Part shown: positions 2,773 through 41,927 of the stretch, one piece after another
Layout of the letters: each line of letters starts with the position of its first letter
Position numbering within the stretch: position 1 is the stretch's first letter
Assembly (NCBI GenBank): GCA_043750495.1
Contig: JAYVBM010000014.1
Coordinates: 1 to 46,613 of the forward strand
Direction of reading: 5' to 3'
Source of the DNA: Minisyncoccota bacterium
GTDB taxonomy: Bacteria; Patescibacteriota; Minisyncoccia; Phycocordibacterales; UBA918
Length of the DNA stretch: 46,613 nt
Made by a program: the position numbers and the translations under genes
Notes under the pieces: generated by a model
Told to the model about the DNA's origin: nothing
Database searches by the model: none
The model's input: the letters and a program-made list of their open reading frames with translations, nothing else

Positions 2773-3858
2773 ATGAATATTTTTGTGGAAGGGCTGGTGT
2801 GGGTACTGGTTTCGTACCTATCACTCACGAACTCCCTTGCAACACACATTGAATCCTGGCTACCGGCTGAAGAAGTCGAGATAGAGACTGCTGTTGAAGA
2901 GGAGGTCTCTTTCTTAAACTTACCTACCATCTTTGGGCAATCCATCCCTGACATTCTTCTTCGTAGTAGCGAATATCAACAAGCTGCCCTCGGTGCAGCC
3001 GCCGGACTAACCGGCAGTACCACAGATGACCCGTTTGATGCTCTAGTAAATATTTTTTGCACCTTCAAGACAGATGATTACATTCGCACCACGACCGGTA
3101 CCGGCTTCTTTATTGACCCAGATGGCATCATCATGACCAACGCACACATAGCGCAATTCCTTCTACTGGAAAAAACCGACAGTTTTGGTGACGCTGACTG
3201 CATCGTCAGGAGCGGAAGCCCTGCGGCGCCACGCTATAAGGCTGACCTACTCTATATCCCCCCGACATGGATAAGTGAGAACGCTACTCTAATCAATGAC
3301 TCTGCCCCAATGGGTACAGGTGAACGTGACTACGCCCTCTTGTATGTGAGCGAGGATGTTGACAACAACCCCCTCCCCGCCAGATTCCCCGCATTGTCTT
3401 ATGATGACGAACTACTCCCAACTTCAGTTCGTGAAAGCGAAGTAGTGGCGGCCGGCTACCCAGCGCGAGACCTTATCAAAAACGGAGCCAGTACCGACTT
3501 ACTTGCTAAAAAGGCCACCACGTCTATTTCTGAGCTCTACACCTTTGGTTCAAACTACGCTGACGTCTTTTCCGTAAGAGGGAGTGTCGTGGGGGCGGAA
3601 GGTGCCTCTGGAGGTCCAATCATTGACGACAACGGTAACGTCATCGGAATGATAGCTACCCGAGGAGACGATGATGTTGATGGTGAAGGTAGTTTACGCG
3701 CCATTACACTCTCGCACATCAATCGCACAATTAAGGAAGAGACCGGCTTTACACTTACCGACAACCTCGCTGGCAATCTCCCCTACCGCGCAAAAATATT
3801 TGCAGATACTATGACGCCTTTCTTGATACAAACACTTGAGAAAGGTAAAGACGAATAA
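2773..3858 (+). CDS. membrane-anchored trypsin-like serine protease (S1 family)
   Basis: Hydrophobic N-terminus, then candidate triad motifs TNAHI, DYALLYV and GASGGPIID. I prefer the start at ATG 2773, because the TTG at 2749 lies inside the repeat element. Confidence 0.75.
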   Translation: MNIFVEGLVWVLVSYLSLTNSLATHIESWLPAEEVEIETAVEEEVSFLNLPTIFGQSIPDILLRSSEYQQAALGAAAGLTGSTTDDPFDALVNIFCTFKTDDYIRTTTGTGFFIDPDGIIMTNAHIAQFLLLEKTDSFGDADCIVRSGSPAAPRYKADLLYIPPTWISENATLINDSAPMGTGERDYALLYVSEDVDNNPLPARFPALSYDDELLPTSVRESEVVAAGYPARDLIKNGASTDLLAKKATTSISELYTFGSNYADVFSVRGSVVGAEGASGGPIIDDNGNVIGMIATRGDDDVDGEGSLRAITLSHINRTIKEETGFTLTDNLAGNLPYRAKIFADTMTPFLIQTLEKGKDE

Positions 3859-3860
3859 AG

Positions 3861-3890
3861 AAAAAGGCGCGCCGGATGGCGCGCCTTTTT
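3861..3890. terminator. bidirectional hairpin terminator
   Basis: aaaaaggcgcgcc-ggat-ggcgcgccttttt, a perfect 13-bp stem. Confidence 0.8.
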
Positions 3891-3904
3891 CTTTACATAA
3901 ATTT

Positions 3905-7332: not shown

Positions 7333-7366
7333 AATCAAAGGCTCGCGCACCGCGCGGGCCTTATTT

Positions 7367-14971: not shown

Positions 14972-14978
14972 AGCTCAA

Positions 14979-15014
14979 GGGCCGGTTTGTGTAAGCAAAC
15001 CGGCCCTTTCTTTG
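14979..15014 (+). terminator. rho-independent terminator
   Basis: gggccggtttg-tgtaag-caaaccggccc then tttctttg. Confidence 0.8.
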
Positions 15015-29924: not shown

Positions 29925-30302
29925 ATGACCCAACTAGTGATCTTTCAAGGACAACGTTTACATCGTCCCATCGGCGTCGATTGGTTTCGACAACTGGGAG
30001 AGGAGAAGCTGCTCAACCTGACAGTGGGAACTCTCATCTGGTACGTTGACGGCAAGTGGGTAGAGAGCGTGAAAGTCACCCAGCCCTCAGTGCGTCTGGA
30101 TATGCTGTCTGCACCGTCTTTGCATGGCATCCAAGTATTTTGTTCCAGTCGGCACAGAGTCTGGAGTCCCAAACTCATACGAGACGGGAAGCAAAGCCGG
30201 CTATATTTGATCAGCGACCGCGAAGCGGCCTACGAATACTACACGCGCGCGGAAGAAACAGTCGTCGGAGACCAGAAACTTCGACTTGTCGGTACGGGGT
30301 AG
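29925..30302 (+). CDS. hypothetical protein
   Basis: 125-aa ORF with GGAGG 5 nt upstream, followed by the hairpin ggggtagc..gctaccccgtttttt. Confidence 0.4.
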   Translation: MTQLVIFQGQRLHRPIGVDWFRQLGEEKLLNLTVGTLIWYVDGKWVESVKVTQPSVRLDMLSAPSLHGIQVFCSSRHRVWSPKLIRDGKQSRLYLISDREAAYEYYTRAEETVVGDQKLRLVGTG

Positions 30303-30598
30303 CAGCAATGCTACCCCGTTTTTTAATATTTTGAAGAAAAGAGTGAACTGTTCCCTAACCTTGCCATCGTGTTTGTTGCATCGGTCAATCTTGTAGTACT
30401 AATAAACTAAATGCGCTGTGGCCAAAGCTACACTTTTATAAAACACCTCTGCAACAATGGCAAAATGAGTGTATGGGCTTGCTTTTTTAAAAAAACCTGC
30501 TATAGTAGTTAAACCTTCGCAGGTAATCGACCGCACCACGTGGTAACTCTCATATTGAGTGGTATCTATACTACAGGCTGCGTAACTAATATAAACCT

Positions 30599-30865
30599 AT
30601 GCTATCAAAGCGAATTAAAGAAAACGTTTTAAAAGGAGTCCGCGTGCATGACACTGACACTGGTTCAGCGCAGGCACAAGTCGGACTTTTGACCCGCCAG
30701 ATTGAAGAATTGTCTAATCACTTGCGCAAGCATAAGAAAGACTTTCACTCACGTCGTGGTCTACTTCAGATGGTGGCAGACCGCCGCAAGCACCTAAAGT
30801 ATCTCGAGAAGCATGACGCCAAGGCCTATGCCGGACTCATCAAGAAACTCGGTCTAAAACGATAA
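30599..30865 (+). CDS. rpsO: 30S ribosomal protein S15
   Basis: GSAQAQVGLLTRQIEELSNHLRKHKKDFHSRRGLLQMVADRRKHLKYL. TAATAT lies 6 nt before the ATG. Confidence 0.95.
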   Translation: MLSKRIKENVLKGVRVHDTDTGSAQAQVGLLTRQIEELSNHLRKHKKDFHSRRGLLQMVADRRKHLKYLEKHDAKAYAGLIKKLGLKR

Positions 30866-31160
30866 GAACCTGCGCTCGCTTTGAGCGCATTTTCTTTTTT
30901 TGCGGTATAGTAAAGAACCCGTCTCACATATAACCGCATACTGTTACGGTGAGTCGGTAGCGGGAGTCTCGCTTGTCTACAAAAACAGCAAATACGCGGC
31001 TACAACACTTCGGTTCGCTCTCAGCGAACTCAAGTTCACTTCGAACTCCACCTCGTATTTCGCTCGCGTCTTTACAATTTTTGCTAGACATTCTATGTGA
31101 GAAGGGTTCTGTGAGAGTCTTTGTACATTTTATTTTAAACATTTTTAATATTAGAACTTT

Positions 31161-31786: not shown

Positions 31787-31812
31787 AGGGCCGCCTCAAA
31801 CTAGAGGCGGCC
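31787..31812 (-). terminator. hairpin after the convergent 31825-32502 gene
   Basis: gggccgcctc-aaacta-gaggcggccc. Confidence 0.6.
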
Positions 31813-31824
31813 CTAAACTTTTCT

Positions 31825-32502: not shown

Positions 32503-32678
32503 ATATAACTACAGTATTCACGAAATTGCAACGTTGGCAGGGGCGGCCTTCTGCCGCCCCTTACTTTTTACTTATCTAATTTTTTTGTTATGCTTTGCCT
32601 ATTACTACACGAGCTTCGTACGTAGGTAGGTTTCAAGATTTGAAATCTAAAACGTACGCGGCTCTTAAGAAACAAGAA

Positions 32679-34799: not shown

Positions 34800-34811
34800 A
34801 GTTTGTTAGGG

Positions 34812-34837
34812 AAAAACTCCCCCTTAGGGGAGTTTTT
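34812..34837 (+). terminator. rho-independent terminator of pnp
   Basis: aaaaactcccc-ctta-ggggagttttt. Confidence 0.8.
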
Positions 34838-34855
34838 CGTGAGATACTATACGTA

Positions 34856-36505
34856 ATGAGTGACGAACTCAAAAAAACACTGCCCCGTATTCGAACGTTT
34901 GCGGATGACTTTGAACATGACAGAAAAGAGAGTGGTTTACCTCTACCGCCTGGTGTTTCTGCGCCTCAAGCAGTCGAACCAACACCCATGGCAGCGTCAC
35001 CACAAATTGTGATCCTAACAGACACTGCAAAAAGTGAGGGCGACGCTATGGTTAACACACCGGTCCCCGCATTCCATGAGCTGAAGAAGCGAAGTTCGTC
35101 TGACAACATAGCCGCACCAGAAAAGGCAGCTGCGATCCAAACAAGACCGATACGTCAGGTCGCGCCGATTGAGGAATCAGGAGCAAAAACGGTAGTTGTC
35201 AGACGTACAAAAACAGCTACCTCGCCAAAACCAGTATCGAGCGCCGGTGCCACAATAATTACTGACAACAAACGTAACAAACAAGGTCTCGTACCTGCTC
35301 TAATTGAAGCCGTGCGTGGCTGGTTCAAAAAAATGTCGGCTGACGCGAAGCAAAAGCCTACCCCGAAATACACAGTTGTTGATACCGAAAGAAGAAAGGG
35401 TGTTATTCAAAAAGCCACAACCAAAACTGGCACTATCTTCACGGCAGACAATGAAACTCTGAAAGAAGAAATACGTCGACGCAACTGGAAAAAACAAGCG
35501 ACAGACAGCGACGAGCCAGATATAACGTGGTCTCCAAACATAGAGGTTGGCTATCCGCTCCTTGATTCAGGCCTACCTAAGCCTAACAATGTAAATGTAG
35601 AATTTAAACGACGAGTTGAGCCAACCCCAGTTGTGCCGCCGGCACCCACAGTTATTGTACCGCCACATGTATTTGTTGAACCAACAATACCAGAGCCAGT
35701 AGTAGTCCCCGAACCAGCTATAGTGACACCTCCACCAGAAGCTCCGACTGAGCCTATAGTCTCTTATGTAGAGGAACCTGAGCCAGAGCCTGAACCCGAA
35801 TACGCACTCACTACACCTGAAGCGCACTATCGTATCAGAAGTATTGGAGATGTCACAAAACTAAATACTAACCTACTTTCAATTGGAGTGGTCGGTATTG
35901 TTGCCGGGATTATTATTGTGATACTAGTTGGGAGATTACTTGTGGGATTTATACTTGCAGACGATCCTTTGGGGGACGTTCTCCCGGCCACACCAATAGC
36001 CCTTGGCACCTCGGTTACTGACCTGGCACTTGACGCCCCTACTCAAGAAGCTTTACTCATTGCGCTACAACAAATACCAGACGATGTGCGTGCCCAGCAT
36101 GAATTTAGAATCGTAGATAGAAAAGGCCTTCCGTTGCAAAAGTCTGTCCTGCTGCCACTACTTGGATTTACTAACTCTGGTAGCCTAAGTCAAACAATCG
36201 TTGACCTACACATTCTTTACACACAAGACACCCGAGGCATTGTCTTTACAGTTACCGATGCCACTACTGCGTTTGGTTCGCTGCTGGCTTGGGAAGTGTA
36301 CATGGTAGACAGTTTGGGACCAATACTAAATATAATACCGCCAACTGAAACTATCGTTGTGTCTGATCGTACTATCGCAAATACTGACGTCCGTATCTTT
36401 ACCGCTGGCGATCAAGAGATACTGGTATATGGATTTGTCGGGGCTAACAAAGTCCTGATTACCAAAGACTTCCCGTCATTTACGGCGACTCTAGGCAGTC
36501 AGTAG
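34856..36505 (+). CDS. hypothetical single-pass membrane protein with a Pro/Glu-rich linker
   Basis: 549-aa ORF with a low-complexity PEP-rich stretch, then a TM helix (LLSIGVVGIVAGIIIVILVG) and a C-terminal domain. Confidence 0.5.
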   Translation: MSDELKKTLPRIRTFADDFEHDRKESGLPLPPGVSAPQAVEPTPMAASPQIVILTDTAKSEGDAMVNTPVPAFHELKKRSSSDNIAAPEKAAAIQTRPIRQVAPIEESGAKTVVVRRTKTATSPKPVSSAGATIITDNKRNKQGLVPALIEAVRGWFKKMSADAKQKPTPKYTVVDTERRKGVIQKATTKTGTIFTADNETLKEEIRRRNWKKQATDSDEPDITWSPNIEVGYPLLDSGLPKPNNVNVEFKRRVEPTPVVPPAPTVIVPPHVFVEPTIPEPVVVPEPAIVTPPPEAPTEPIVSYVEEPEPEPEPEYALTTPEAHYRIRSIGDVTKLNTNLLSIGVVGIVAGIIIVILVGRLLVGFILADDPLGDVLPATPIALGTSVTDLALDAPTQEALLIALQQIPDDVRAQHEFRIVDRKGLPLQKSVLLPLLGFTNSGSLSQTIVDLHILYTQDTRGIVFTVTDATTAFGSLLAWEVYMVDSLGPILNIIPPTETIVVSDRTIANTDVRIFTAGDQEILVYGFVGANKVLITKDFPSFTATLGSQ

Positions 36506-36514
36506 CCGGATGCG

Positions 36515-36651
36515 GTATATCCCGACACTAACTTTAGTGTAGTTTTTGCTAGCGCCCATCATTCTTGTTCCAAACAACTCAGACGAAAAGCGGACTAGGT
36601 AGTGAAAAGAGTGAAAAACACTAGCGACACGAAAGTTAGTGTGGGGTATAC
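36515..36651 (+). repeat. hairpin element copy 3 (~137 bp)
   Basis: gtatatcccgacactaactttagtgtagtttttgctagc ... gaaaaacactagcgacacgaaagttagtgtggggtatac. Confidence 0.85.
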
Positions 36652-36652
36652 T
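36624..36652 (+). promoter_or_regulatory. promoter-like GCGACA-N17-TATACT in the 3' arm of copy 3, 8 nt before ATG 36661
   Basis: GCGACAcgaaagttagtgtggggTATACTcaccctatATG. Confidence 0.4.
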
Positions 36653-36660
36653 CACCCTAT

Positions 36661-37035
36661 ATGATTGATACCAATACCCTAAAAGCTAAACTGGACACTG
36701 AGCTAGCGCAGGTAATAAATGACCTCAGCGCTATTGCCAACTTCAACGAACTGACCGGGGACTGGGTAGCGGTACCTGATGCGCAAGAACTGCAAGAAGC
36801 TGACATGAACTCAGAAGCTGATGCAGTGGAAGAATGGAACGAAAGACGGGCAACTCTATCGCAGCTTGAAACAACCTATCAAAATACGAAACGAGCCTTA
36901 GAAAAAATCGAATCTACTACCTTTGGTACATGTGAGATATGCCAAGCGTTGATTGAAGAAGATAGGATTTCTTTCCTCCCTACCGCGCGCACCTGCAAGG
37001 AACATCGGGACGACGAACGTACCCTTCCTCTGTAA
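36661..37035 (+). CDS. DksA/TraR-family C4 zinc-finger protein
   Basis: Coiled-coil N-terminus, then CEICQALIEEDRISFLPTARTCKEH (CxxC..C..H/C finger). Confidence 0.7.
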   Translation: MIDTNTLKAKLDTELAQVINDLSAIANFNELTGDWVAVPDAQELQEADMNSEADAVEEWNERRATLSQLETTYQNTKRALEKIESTTFGTCEICQALIEEDRISFLPTARTCKEHRDDERTLPL

Positions 37036-37045
37036 TAACCACATT

Positions 37046-38556
37046 ATGCCCATTGCCAGTGTCACCACGGTTCAGCCTCAAGTCCTTACCGGAACAATCG
37101 TGACTATTGAAGCAGATATTTCGCGTGGTCTCCACGCTTTTTCTATTGTTGGTTTGGCAGGTAAGGCCATCGACGAATCGAAGGACCGTGTTTCAAGTGC
37201 CATCAAACACTCTGGTTTTGACTCTCCTAAAACAAAAAATCACAAAATTGTTATCTCTCTATCGCCCGCTGATCTAAAAAAAGAAGGTCCTCTTTTTGAT
37301 CTACCAATTGCTATTGCCTACCTCATTGCTGCAGAAGAAATAGTGACTGATAGTAAAGAGCGTATTCTCATCGGCGAACTTGGCCTTGACGGTACACTAC
37401 GAAAAGTGCGTGGTGTCCTCAACTGTATTATGGCAGCGAAAAATGCGGGGTTTTCTGAAGTAGTGGTTCCAATTGAAAATGCTGAGGAAGCGGCGCTCGT
37501 GGAAGACATCACTATTTTTCCGGCCGGTACGTTACGTGAGGTGATTGACCATATTAGTAGTAGCCAAGAAAACACTAAACTAATGCCACAACCTCCGACA
37601 CATATATCCGAAGAATGGTATGAGAGTACGGTTACTTTGGAAGATATTAAAGGGCAGGAAAGTGCCAAGCGTGGACTAATAATTGCGGCCGCTGGACGGC
37701 ACAACGTAATGTTTGTGGGGCCGCCTGGAACCGGCAAGACTATGCTCGCTCGCGCGCTGCGCGGATTATTGCCACCACTATCGCGCAAGGAAGCGCTGGC
37801 TGTTACGGCTATTCATTCACTAACGTCTGGCGAAACTTTAATTAGCACCAGACCGCCATTTCGAGCACCTCACCACACCGCCTCACACACTGCCTTAGTC
37901 GGTGGTGGAACCAACCCCAAACCTGGCGAGGTTACTCTCGCCCACCACGGCGTGCTTTTTATGGACGAGTTTCCTGAGTTTGATCGGCGTTCAATTGATG
38001 CGTTGCGACAACCGCTTGAAGACCGGGTAGTGAGTATTTCACGCGTACAAGGCACGGCAGAGTTTCCCGCCGACTTTGTGCTCGTCGCCGCCCTCAATCC
38101 CTATCGTGGAAGCTTTGATGAACCACCGATCTCGCTCGAGCCATGCAGGAGACCTATAAGAATAAAGTATCTGGACCAATCCTTGATCGTATTGATCTTT
38201 GGCTTGAAGTACCACACGTTGACTACGATACTCTGACGGGTCTCAAGGTGGAAACAGATGAGACTGAAAAAGCCCGGGGGCAGGTGCTAAAGGCACGCGA
38301 GCAGATGCTAGCGCGCCACGCCGGACGGGCCGCTGCCACCAACTCCAGTCTCTCAGCCCGTGATATCGAAGAGATTATCCATATTACTGATGAAGTAAAG
38401 GATCTGCTAAAAGTTTCTAGCCTCAAACTAAGCCTTTCTCCCCGAGGCTACCATCGACTAATAAAAGTAGCGCGGACAATTGCCGACCTAGATCAGAGCG
38501 AACATATCGGTATCCCACACGTCCTTGAAGCACTTCAGTACCGTGTACCATTATAA
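37046..38556 (+). pseudogene. comM: Mg-chelatase-like ATPase ComM/YifB, interrupted by a frameshift near 38120-38142
   Basis: N-terminal Lon-protease-like domain (SLSPADLKKEGPLFDLPIAIAYL), Walker A GPPGTGKTM, Walker B LFMDEF. The C-terminal part (KVSGPILDRIDLWLEVP...) continues in the -1 frame, in the ORF starting at 38143. Confidence 0.75.
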
Positions 38557-38591
38557 AAGAAACCCCTCCAAAAAGTTTGAAGGGGTTTTGT

Positions 38592-41352: not shown

Positions 41353-41927
41353 GACTGACTCGAGTACAATTTGTACACGAGTCTTTATGGTTGGGATATG
41401 AAATTGACTGCGCTTACTTGGTTCGCCGTCTTTGCTTTGGGTTGAAGATTGAATGGTTGTGTTGTTAGGACTCGCCGCCGTGCACTCGTTACGCCTGTGC
41501 CAGAAATGAAAAAGAGCATCACTGCTCCGGTACCCCTTTTTGGATACTGGAGTATTTTACTAGACCTAAGGGCAATAGCAATTGACGTAGTACACTTTTT
41601 ACTGAAAGCTCCTTATCTCCCAAAGATGCCATTAAAGCAGGCCCTTAAAAAGGGCATTGACATTACATTTAAATAATGTTATATTTAAACCAATGCGACC
41701 AAACACCCACATTCTTATGATTGCGAAAACCGCTCCCAAGCGTACTTTTTCTGCAATCTTCTACGCTGGTGCACAACCAGTAGTACTCCAAGAAATGTGG
41801 CCTGTTGGTTTGATGACGTAAACTCCTTTTATTTCATCTAAGCAGCGGGTCTATACCCGTTGTCATTATATTGTGTATCAATAATCCCGTTGATCACTTT
41901 GTCTGTTCTTTAAAAACGGAGGTCTTT

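Follow-up and report, generated by a model that had tools for sequence, protein, structure and literature searches.

A probable MITE-like hairpin insertion in the promoter box of a DksA-like gene of a Patescibacteria genome

Between two genes of a small bacterial genome, a long hairpin occupies nearly all of the space that separates a stop codon from the next start codon, and the question that this locus raises is whether the hairpin was built there as a signal or arrived there as mobile DNA. The hairpin, a 138-nt imperfect palindrome, lies at positions 36514-36651 on the + strand of a 46,613-nt stretch of DNA (hereafter the window), which is contig C14 of a Paceibacteria genome (0.9 Mb, 94 contigs, 86% complete) of the candidate phyla radiation (CPR, or Patescibacteria). 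It is preceded by a gene encoding a protein of 549 amino acids (aa) and followed by a DksA/TraR-like zinc-finger gene. A preliminary description of this DNA had proposed a combined cassette, in which the stem would stop or insulate upstream transcription and the 3' arm would restart it for the downstream gene. The comparisons reported here favor another reading, to which we assign a probability of about 0.8: the hairpin would be a copy of a non-autonomous transposon, similar to MITEs (miniature transposable elements with inverted repeats), that entered the promoter box of the downstream gene, and not a built-in stop-and-restart signal.

The layout of the locus is largely as first described. 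The 549-aa gene (34856..36505, + strand) is fast-evolving, has no Pfam domain and stops with a TAG codon at 36503-36505, and the DksA-like gene (36661..37035, + strand, 124 aa) begins with the ATG at 36661; both positions, as well as the occurrence of one element copy filling this gap, were already given in the preliminary description and are borne out by the sequence, the 155-nt gap holding the 138-nt repeat. Its flanks of 9 nt on either side hold if the element is taken to start at 36515, and become 8 nt and 9 nt with the boundaries used here, where the element starts with GGTATATCCC and ends with GGGGTATAC. The product of the downstream gene has a weak match to Pfam PF01258 (22.3 bits for a cut-off of 24.9), and its orthologues within the genus, which are 47-52% identical, align from residue 1 and thereby back the start codon. 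The order PNPase, 549-aa gene and DksA-like gene is kept across the genus, the 549-aa gene lying between the two others in all relatives, and the window PNPase is nearest to those of 'Candidatus Kaiserbacteria/Nomurabacteria' metagenome-assembled genomes. The 155-nt gap folds into one long hairpin with a minimum free energy of -54.6 kcal/mol, compared with -33.5 ± 4 for 200 shuffled sequences (z -5.3), none of which folded as well; the opposite strand of the copy is about equally stable (-54.0 kcal/mol). The 5' arm (GGTATATCCCGACACTAACTTTAGTGTAGTTTTTGCTAGC, 36514..36553), which carries one additional G as a bulge, and the 3' arm (CACTAGCGACACGAAAGTTAGTGTGGGGTATAC, 36619..36651) pair over about 25-38 bp.

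Relatives with an empty junction provide the most direct evidence on its origin. These were reached via homologues of the 549-aa protein; exact-DNA-pattern scans of metagenome contigs for a strain-level empty site gave no match, and a search of the genome contigs with the 549-aa protein gave no relatives. In five lineages (L152, L161, L163, L165 and L167), the two genes are separated by a gap of only 24 nt with the structure TAG-8 nt-GGTATACT-8 nt-ATG, and the alleles can be compared directly, base by base: L152 reads cagtcagTAG GTTGGTGC GGTATAC TCACCCTAT ATG, and the window reads cagtcagTAG CCGGATGC GGTATA(TCCC...GGGG)TATAC TCACCCTAT ATG. A filled gap of 155 nt also occurs in L150/L151, a 97% strain, and in L153, whose 549-aa protein is about 65% identical. 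The difference between filled and empty sites is 131 nt, which corresponds to an inserted core of 127 nt (TCCCGACAC...GTGTGGGG, 36520..36646), made up of the 5' arm, a non-conserved centre and the 3' arm according to the family alignment, plus a 4-nt duplication of TATA, the left copy of which lies at 36516..36519. The spacer CCGGATGC (36506-36513) and the following GG (together 36506..36515) are native, aligning with GTTGGTGC-GG of the L152 empty site. The 8-nt spacer following the 549-aa stop and the 8 nt following GGTATACT vary among lineages, whereas GGTATACT itself is invariant in all seven of them, the five empty ones and the filled L150 and L153, and this invariance amid variable flanks is thus comparative evidence for a functional -10 box. 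More distant members of the genus have gaps of 1-22 nt (one of 93 nt), several of them with TATACT 6-8 nt before the ATG.

The element is one of many. BLAST, an nhmmer profile and a covariance model, applied to the whole genome, revealed about 27 full-length copies, which measure 135-143 nt and are spread over 17 contigs; five of the copies lie within the window. The main subfamily comprises 13 copies that are 72-81% identical to the copy at 36514-36651, and other subfamilies have only the arms in common; tandem copies overlap by, or share, GGTATAC. Among related genomes the distribution is patchy: of 24 further genomes in the genus, 3 carry elements, as do 2 of 16 from other families of the order (5 of 40 in all), and the elements fall into size classes between about 70 and about 320 nt. 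Other sites document the mobility of the family. The junction between an ABC-transporter gene and uvrD, where the window has two tandem copies, is empty in data from the L153/L154 lineage, with 78 nt ending in GGTATAGTGTCCGCAC, and the divergent region between the MscS and peptidase genes is empty on both sides in L156 and L159, where it measures 95 nt, and holds only the peptidase-side copy in L160 (MscS 88% identical). Because the UvrD and MscS/peptidase sites are empty or half-filled in relatives, the family has been transposing while these lineages diverged.

Two observations concern the wider set of such elements. A superfamily found in G004, G005, G011 and G037 (for instance L030 and L042, G005:C4:27564-27632 and G004:C2:226147-226468) has the shared terminal motif TACCCCCACACC...GGTGTGGGGGTA, which bounds elements of about 70, 85, 140, 210 and 290-320 nt whose inner stems are wholly different yet complementary. 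Two divergent copies with GTTTTACCCCCACACC... ends, at 1800-1941 and 2585-2725 of contig C51 of G000, lie inside long open frames; either these open reading frames (ORFs) are spurious or the insertions are intragenic.

The terminal inverted repeats have kept their complementarity. In an alignment of 25 copies, the arms pair over 24-28 positions with 93% of the arm cells paired, and 8 of 24 pairs have changed on both sides (34 cells), a degree of covariation reached by none of 500 shuffles; slid controls drop to 35-52% paired. The pairing has therefore been maintained, most simply at the DNA level, through a folded intermediate or hairpin recognition. No consensus structure was found across paralogues for the centre of the element. 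Mismatches in the sense-strand stems are mostly A.C (18, for 4 G.U), and therefore the complementary strand folds better: it is the more stable one in 22 of 27 copies (mean -52.4 versus -47.8 kcal/mol, Wilcoxon P 2e-4), which suggests that the bottom strand is the one folding in vivo. The copy at 36514-36651 is among the five exceptions to this bias (+1.8).

The position of the copies relative to genes is highly constrained. With arrays counted once, one edge lies 6-13 nt from the start codon of an ORF of 60 codons or more in 18 of 22 loci, compared with 9.7% of random intergenic points (binomial P 2.6e-15). The hexamer at this gene-proximal edge is TATACT 20 times and TATAGT once. At the distal edge, with no gene start adjoining, it is TATACC, TATAGC, TATATC or TATAAC, always ending in C, and is often preceded by TGn, which would represent a left-behind extended -10 motif. 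The main subfamily has nine gene-adjacent copies, and each of them has its 3' arm on the side of the gene. Six of the 22 loci are flanked by divergent genes; the 136 convergent intergenic regions, 17% of all regions, contain none (P about 0.02). Leaderless genes seem to be common in this genome: TANNNT words peak 6-9 nt before start codons genome-wide (76, 46, 40 and 43 occurrences for a background of about 22), and Shine-Dalgarno-like words are scarce. Among 309 candidate leaderless boxes away from elements, TATAAT (41) and TATACT (37) are the commonest, 33% of the boxes have TGn in front of them, and a -35 signal cannot be seen. TATAC-type boxes alone hold elements and TATAAT never does, and therefore the target includes the C.

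These observations suggest the following course of events. A family whose target is the TATA(C) within -10 boxes of the TATACT type, located 6-9 nt before the starts of leaderless genes, would have entered the ancestral 24-nt junction TAG-N8-GGTATACT-N8-ATG between the 549-aa gene and the DksA-like gene. The TATA duplication would have left an intact TATACT (36647..36652; the right TATA copy and the native CT, with the T at 36652) at its original distance of 8 nt from the ATG, so that the DksA-like gene would keep its -10 box and its leaderless start. The box would thus be the ancestral -10 element of the gene itself, regenerated by the insertion and not borne by the element. The 8-nt discriminator CACCCTAT (36653..36660) has no Shine-Dalgarno sequence and is identical in the L152 empty site, and the gene is probably translated from a leaderless mRNA. 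At the other end, the old upstream half of the promoter, which we take 36506..36515 to represent, would have been pushed 131 nt further from the start codon and would now end in a crippled TATATC: the left TATA and the two bases after it give TATATC in the window and TATACC in L153, a -10 look-alike without the final T. Recognition of a -10 box by sigma-70-type factors needs this final T, and the displaced half is therefore probably dead. The 3' arm of the element would now lie upstream of the box, where it may offer a weak -35-like hexamer, GCGACA (36624..36629), 17 nt upstream of TATACT. The element takes up the whole gap since the native one measured just 24 nt, and not by virtue of having been built as a cassette; five other co-directional loci likewise have a distal edge 2-13 nt from an upstream stop codon.

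The repeat family, both alleles of the site, the preference for this target, the geometry and the conserved state of the -10 box are direct observations. A promoter scan picks GCGACA-17-TATACT (36624-36652), in which the hexamer has 4 of 6 -35 matches and, with the box, 9 of 12, which is at chance level for a single hit, and TGn is absent; the hexamer is kept as GCGACA, GCAACA or GTGACA in most copies. Promoter activity of TATACT, a leaderless mRNA, a contribution of the 3' arm to the promoter and the chemistry of transposition are points that we infer.

Several results weigh against the insertion as we have described it. Native promoters of this genome have no -35 signal, so that any importance of the GCGACA in the arm is weak and doubtful. 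How long the target duplication is remains ambiguous, between 2 and 7 nt of GGTATAC, since runs of C/G form the ends of the element. Compensatory changes in the arms are not required of a plain cut-and-paste relic. The copy is far better conserved than neutral sites, hinting at something beyond a passive insertion. Finally, no autonomous partner or transposase was found in a non-exhaustive search of six genomes. The ends expected to bound a transposase gene of the family are TATACCCC...GGGGTATA. Long pairs of terminal repeats in G029 and G037, considered as an autonomous element, enclose pilins, FKBP and a LOG-like gene and no transposase. A phage origin was dismissed, with only short and spurious matches to phage collections. 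So was an integron attC site, as CACTAAC and GTTAGTG, judged by reading, do not fit the RYYYAAC and GTTRRRY cores and housekeeping genes lie on either side; no search for an integrase was made.

The conservation of this copy deserves closer attention. Between the window and L153, the element is identical at 129 of 138 positions (93.5%) with no indels, the centre accounting for 7 differences in 58 nt and the arms for 2 in 80; in the flanking genes, identity at fourfold-degenerate sites is just 44-47%, near saturation, and the adjoining 8-nt spacer matches at 4 of 8 positions. Compared with L150, there are 2 differences in 138 nt, below the fourfold divergence of 5-7%. One explanation, for which we see a real prospect at somewhat less than even odds, is that a single insertion took place in the common ancestor of the window and L153 lineages and that the copy has since been under purifying selection over its whole length, as a component of the region that controls the DksA-like gene or a transcript spanning the 549-aa and DksA-like genes (an upstream promoter region, a protein-binding site or an RNA processing site). 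Such an exaptation is compatible with a transposon origin, as it concerns the present role of the copy. The divergence figures fit it, and high conservation is not the default of the family: the peptidase-side copies of the window and L160 have decayed to 79% identity with several indels, at a smaller host divergence (fourfold identity 57%). An unrooted ingroup tree, which sets the window, L150 and L153 apart from the five empty lineages with 79-89% support, also fits one insertion. However, rooting with distant members of the genus gives only 48% support, too low to separate one gain from two. Moreover, neither compensatory changes across orthologues nor a conserved ORF were found that would explain constraint on the centre; the only ORF across the element, a minus-strand frame for a 54-aa small protein, is open in three lineages, but its changes are non-synonymous, and it was rejected. 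Many other intergenic regions are 81-96% identical between lineages, which makes the neutral yardstick uncertain, and both filled lineages come from the same metagenome set, so that a lateral spread is conceivable. That a promoter-targeting element inserted once before two deeply diverged CPR lineages split, and is now domesticated in the control region of the DksA-like gene, as an upstream promoter element, an insulator or a processing site, is offered as a tentative proposal.

The same identity might reflect youth instead of selection, if one active variant spread laterally and hit the GGTATACT hot spot independently in each lineage. Such a recent parallel insertion seems somewhat unlikely, even though every lineage retains the target and the element shows strong specificity for site and orientation; each genome has about 50 sites of the TATACT type, and roughly 30% of these hold an element. 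Transposition did continue beyond the separation of the lineages, as the copies at UvrD, MscS and the peptidase gene are lineage-specific, and the 12% divergence of the centre, should the centre be neutral, amounts to no more than 2-3 times that between the window and L150. On the other hand, no other copy in the window genome is more than 81% identical, which gives no sign of a recent master, the younger insertions in the window stem from other variants, and the filled lineages group together in the ingroup tree.

How the family moves is a separate matter. The filled/empty pairs fit both a cut-and-paste insertion with TATA duplication and an insertion of the IS200/IS605 type. In the latter, single-strand chemistry known from PATE-type elements, the element would insert strand-specifically 3' of TATAC, with no true duplication and with TATAC as its right end. 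The strict orientation of the main subfamily on an asymmetric target (3' arm proximal in 9/9), the constant C after TATA at the right end and the sharing of TATAC in head-to-tail arrays would all be explained, and the covariation of the arms together with the one-strand folding bias would suit a folded single-strand intermediate. Three Y1_Tnp-like ORFs also occur in the genome. We nevertheless regard this chemistry as unlikely, since the element forms a single long foldback in place of two distinct subterminal hairpins, and the Y1_Tnp-like ORFs are not beside elements, occur in 26 of 41 genomes, many of them element-free, and are lacking in G029, which has elements. A RAYT/IS200-like partner was rejected because these ORFs are widespread, unlinked to elements and uncorrelated with their presence. 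The ORFs themselves (IS200/RAYT-like, 220-300 aa) lie at C9:19118-19423, C28:4318-4560 and C52:1016-1252 of G000, with further ones in 25 related genomes.

The cassette of the preliminary description, in which the long stem stops or insulates transcription of the 549-aa gene, the 3' arm restarts it for the DksA-like gene and this dual function explains the position, is in our opinion very unlikely. It has some appeal: a very stable hairpin directly follows a gene with no other terminator, and six co-directional loci have a distal edge 2-13 nt from an upstream stop codon. No intrinsic-terminator-like site was found on the + strand within 36480-36680, which agrees with the initial observation that a separate terminator is missing from this junction. 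Such sites are frequent elsewhere in the window (34 versus 20.5 expected, and 32 versus 19.9 expected, in two scans), with hairpin-plus-T-tract terminators at other gene ends at 1517-1553, 3855-3896, 7338-7362, 14977-15008, 30294-30319, 31787-31814, 32539-32561 and 38560-38588. However, canonical terminators of this genome do have U-tracts, and none follows the stem of the element, whose tail UCACCCUAU has 3 U in 9 nt. A terminator is likewise absent from the ancestral junction in the five empty lineages and in the genus relatives, so that none appears to be needed here. Because no lineage has one at the ancestral junction, read-through from the 549-aa gene into the DksA-like gene would be the ancestral condition. 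Six divergent loci have nothing to terminate, and the convergent regions hold no element. The sense-strand stems, with their A.C mismatches, fold less well than the opposite strand in most copies. A role of the stem as a terminator or insulator is therefore not supported, given the missing U-tract, the terminator-free empty junction and the ties of the family to gene starts. The restart signal fares better in part: a promoter box does lie beside the ATG, but TATACT is native, and the arm contributes only the DNA upstream of it.

An effect of the element on read-through RNA is plausible as a by-product, through pausing at the hairpin or cleavage by RNase III. The genome encodes RNase III, which could cut the stem in read-through RNA, and a stem of 25-38 bp would be a typical substrate of this enzyme. 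The Correia elements of Neisseria illustrate that similar repeats can carry promoters and be RNase III substrates (PMC2649163). A hidden terminator in the 5' arm, an ACACTA/TAGTGT stem followed by TTTTT, was considered and rejected, as it contains no more than 2 G-C pairs, most paralogues lack it and the scan did not flag it. In G000, the RNase III gene (contig C24, 2424-3140) is followed 21 nt on by a main-subfamily copy (3162-3299) whose 3' end lies 8 nt before another ATG. The arrangement first proposed for the element seems to exist in native form one gene upstream: the spacer between PNPase and the 549-aa gene (34800-34855), 93-95% identical in three deeply diverged lineages, contains a hairpin of the terminator type, AAAAACTCCCC-CTTA-GGGGAGTTTTT, with GATACT immediately behind it and 7 nt ahead of the ATG, and would be a compact terminator-then-leaderless-promoter junction.

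It is hardly credible that the element is a gene for a structured non-coding RNA or a riboregulator located in the DksA-like leader, since the stable fold, the covarying arms and the conservation of the copy, which would suit it, are outweighed by the lack of an Rfam match for the element (the Rfam search of the window gave three tRNAs only), a centre with neither consensus structure nor conservation across paralogues, the equal folding of both strands at this copy, the insertion polymorphism of the copies and the position of the element, which comes before the point where transcription of the downstream gene is predicted to begin.

Among known systems, the Correia elements (CREE/NEMIS) of Neisseria are the closest analogue. 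These are inverted-repeat elements of 70-155 bp with a TA duplication, often found 5' of genes (PMC2649163; review PMC10969869). In the 'Black promoter', the Correia element gives a -35 and part of a -10, which native DNA completes (PMC2649163), and RNase III binds or cuts the hairpin formed by its RNA (PMC2649163; review PMC10969869). The CPR family has in common with them a non-coding inverted-repeat build, a TA-type duplication, several size classes and a location 5' of genes. It differs in that it targets an existing leaderless -10 box, TATAC, which is restored and not created, the fixed distance of 6-9 nt to the ATG being due to this target choice. Its CPR host and covarying arms also set it apart, and its sequence is unlike that of Correia elements, by inspection only, so that the resemblance is functional only. 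We know of no IHF site or RNase III cleavage for the CPR hairpin family.

Other repeat families are less similar. Like ERIC/IRU, RUP, BOX and REP/BIME, the element is a short, multi-copy, hairpin-forming intergenic repeat. Those families are co-transcribed with their neighbours and can alter mRNA stability; they are mostly found in 3' untranslated or intercistronic positions, with no fixed relation to a -10 box, and REPs are mobilised by RAYT, without target duplications. With PATE and the MITEs of IS200/IS605, the CPR family shares motif- and orientation-specific insertion, a putative reliance on folded single strands and the presence of Y1 transposase-like genes in the genome, and it differs from PATE in having neither separate left- and right-end hairpins nor a linked TnpA or TnpB gene. 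Intrinsic terminators resemble it in having a stable stem directly after a stop codon; the stem of the element is 5-6 times longer than usual, with an interior of about 55-60 nt and no U-tract, whereas such terminators have a G+C-rich stem of 5-20 bp, a short loop and an immediate U-tract. As for MITEs in general, the element is small (138 nt, for a limit of about 300 bp) and non-coding, with inverted repeats, dispersed copies, a target duplication and filled and empty alleles, and an autonomous relative with the same ends was not found in the non-exhaustive search of six genomes. The kind of element is thus already known, and what is new is this CPR family as a MITE/Correia-like element with specificity for -10 boxes.

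Other features of the window were recorded alongside. Further indels of about 120-200 nt between the window and L154 interrupt otherwise highly conserved intergenic regions (window 32503-32649 versus L154 7400-7830, and window 30303-30559 and 30831-31160); one of them, upstream of PNPase, consists of about 190 extra bases in L154 with a called 33-aa ORF, and all are unrelated to the hairpin family by BLAST. Downstream of the DksA-like gene, a ComM/YifB-like Mg-chelatase gene (37046-38556) is split into overlapping frames (36953/37046-38236 and 38143-38556). It is intact (503 aa) in all relatives (L150-L155, L161-L167), and a frameshift in the overlap accounts for the split, as an assembly error or a pseudogene. 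The divergent intergenic region at 41353-41870 (518 nt) is 91% identical to that of L154 despite saturated synonymous sites, has a near-consensus promoter (TTGACA-17-TATATT with TG, 41657-41685) and no Rfam match, and may be an unannotated RNA or a dense control region.

To our knowledge, the promoters and mobile DNA of the CPR/Patescibacteria, with their tiny gene-dense genomes, are almost wholly uncharted. This locus gives a base-exact picture, empty and filled, of what appears to be a transposon surviving in such a genome by landing where its own target duplication would repair the damage, namely in a leaderless gene's -10 box. The comparison of alleles is also independent evidence for TATACT, placed 6-9 nt before the ATG, as a real and conserved promoter box in these organisms, and the locus warns against annotating long intergenic hairpins in such genomes as terminators or RNA genes. 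If the conservation of this copy does reflect selection, a mobile element would have been recruited into gene control, a case of MITE exaptation in a streamlined minimal genome.

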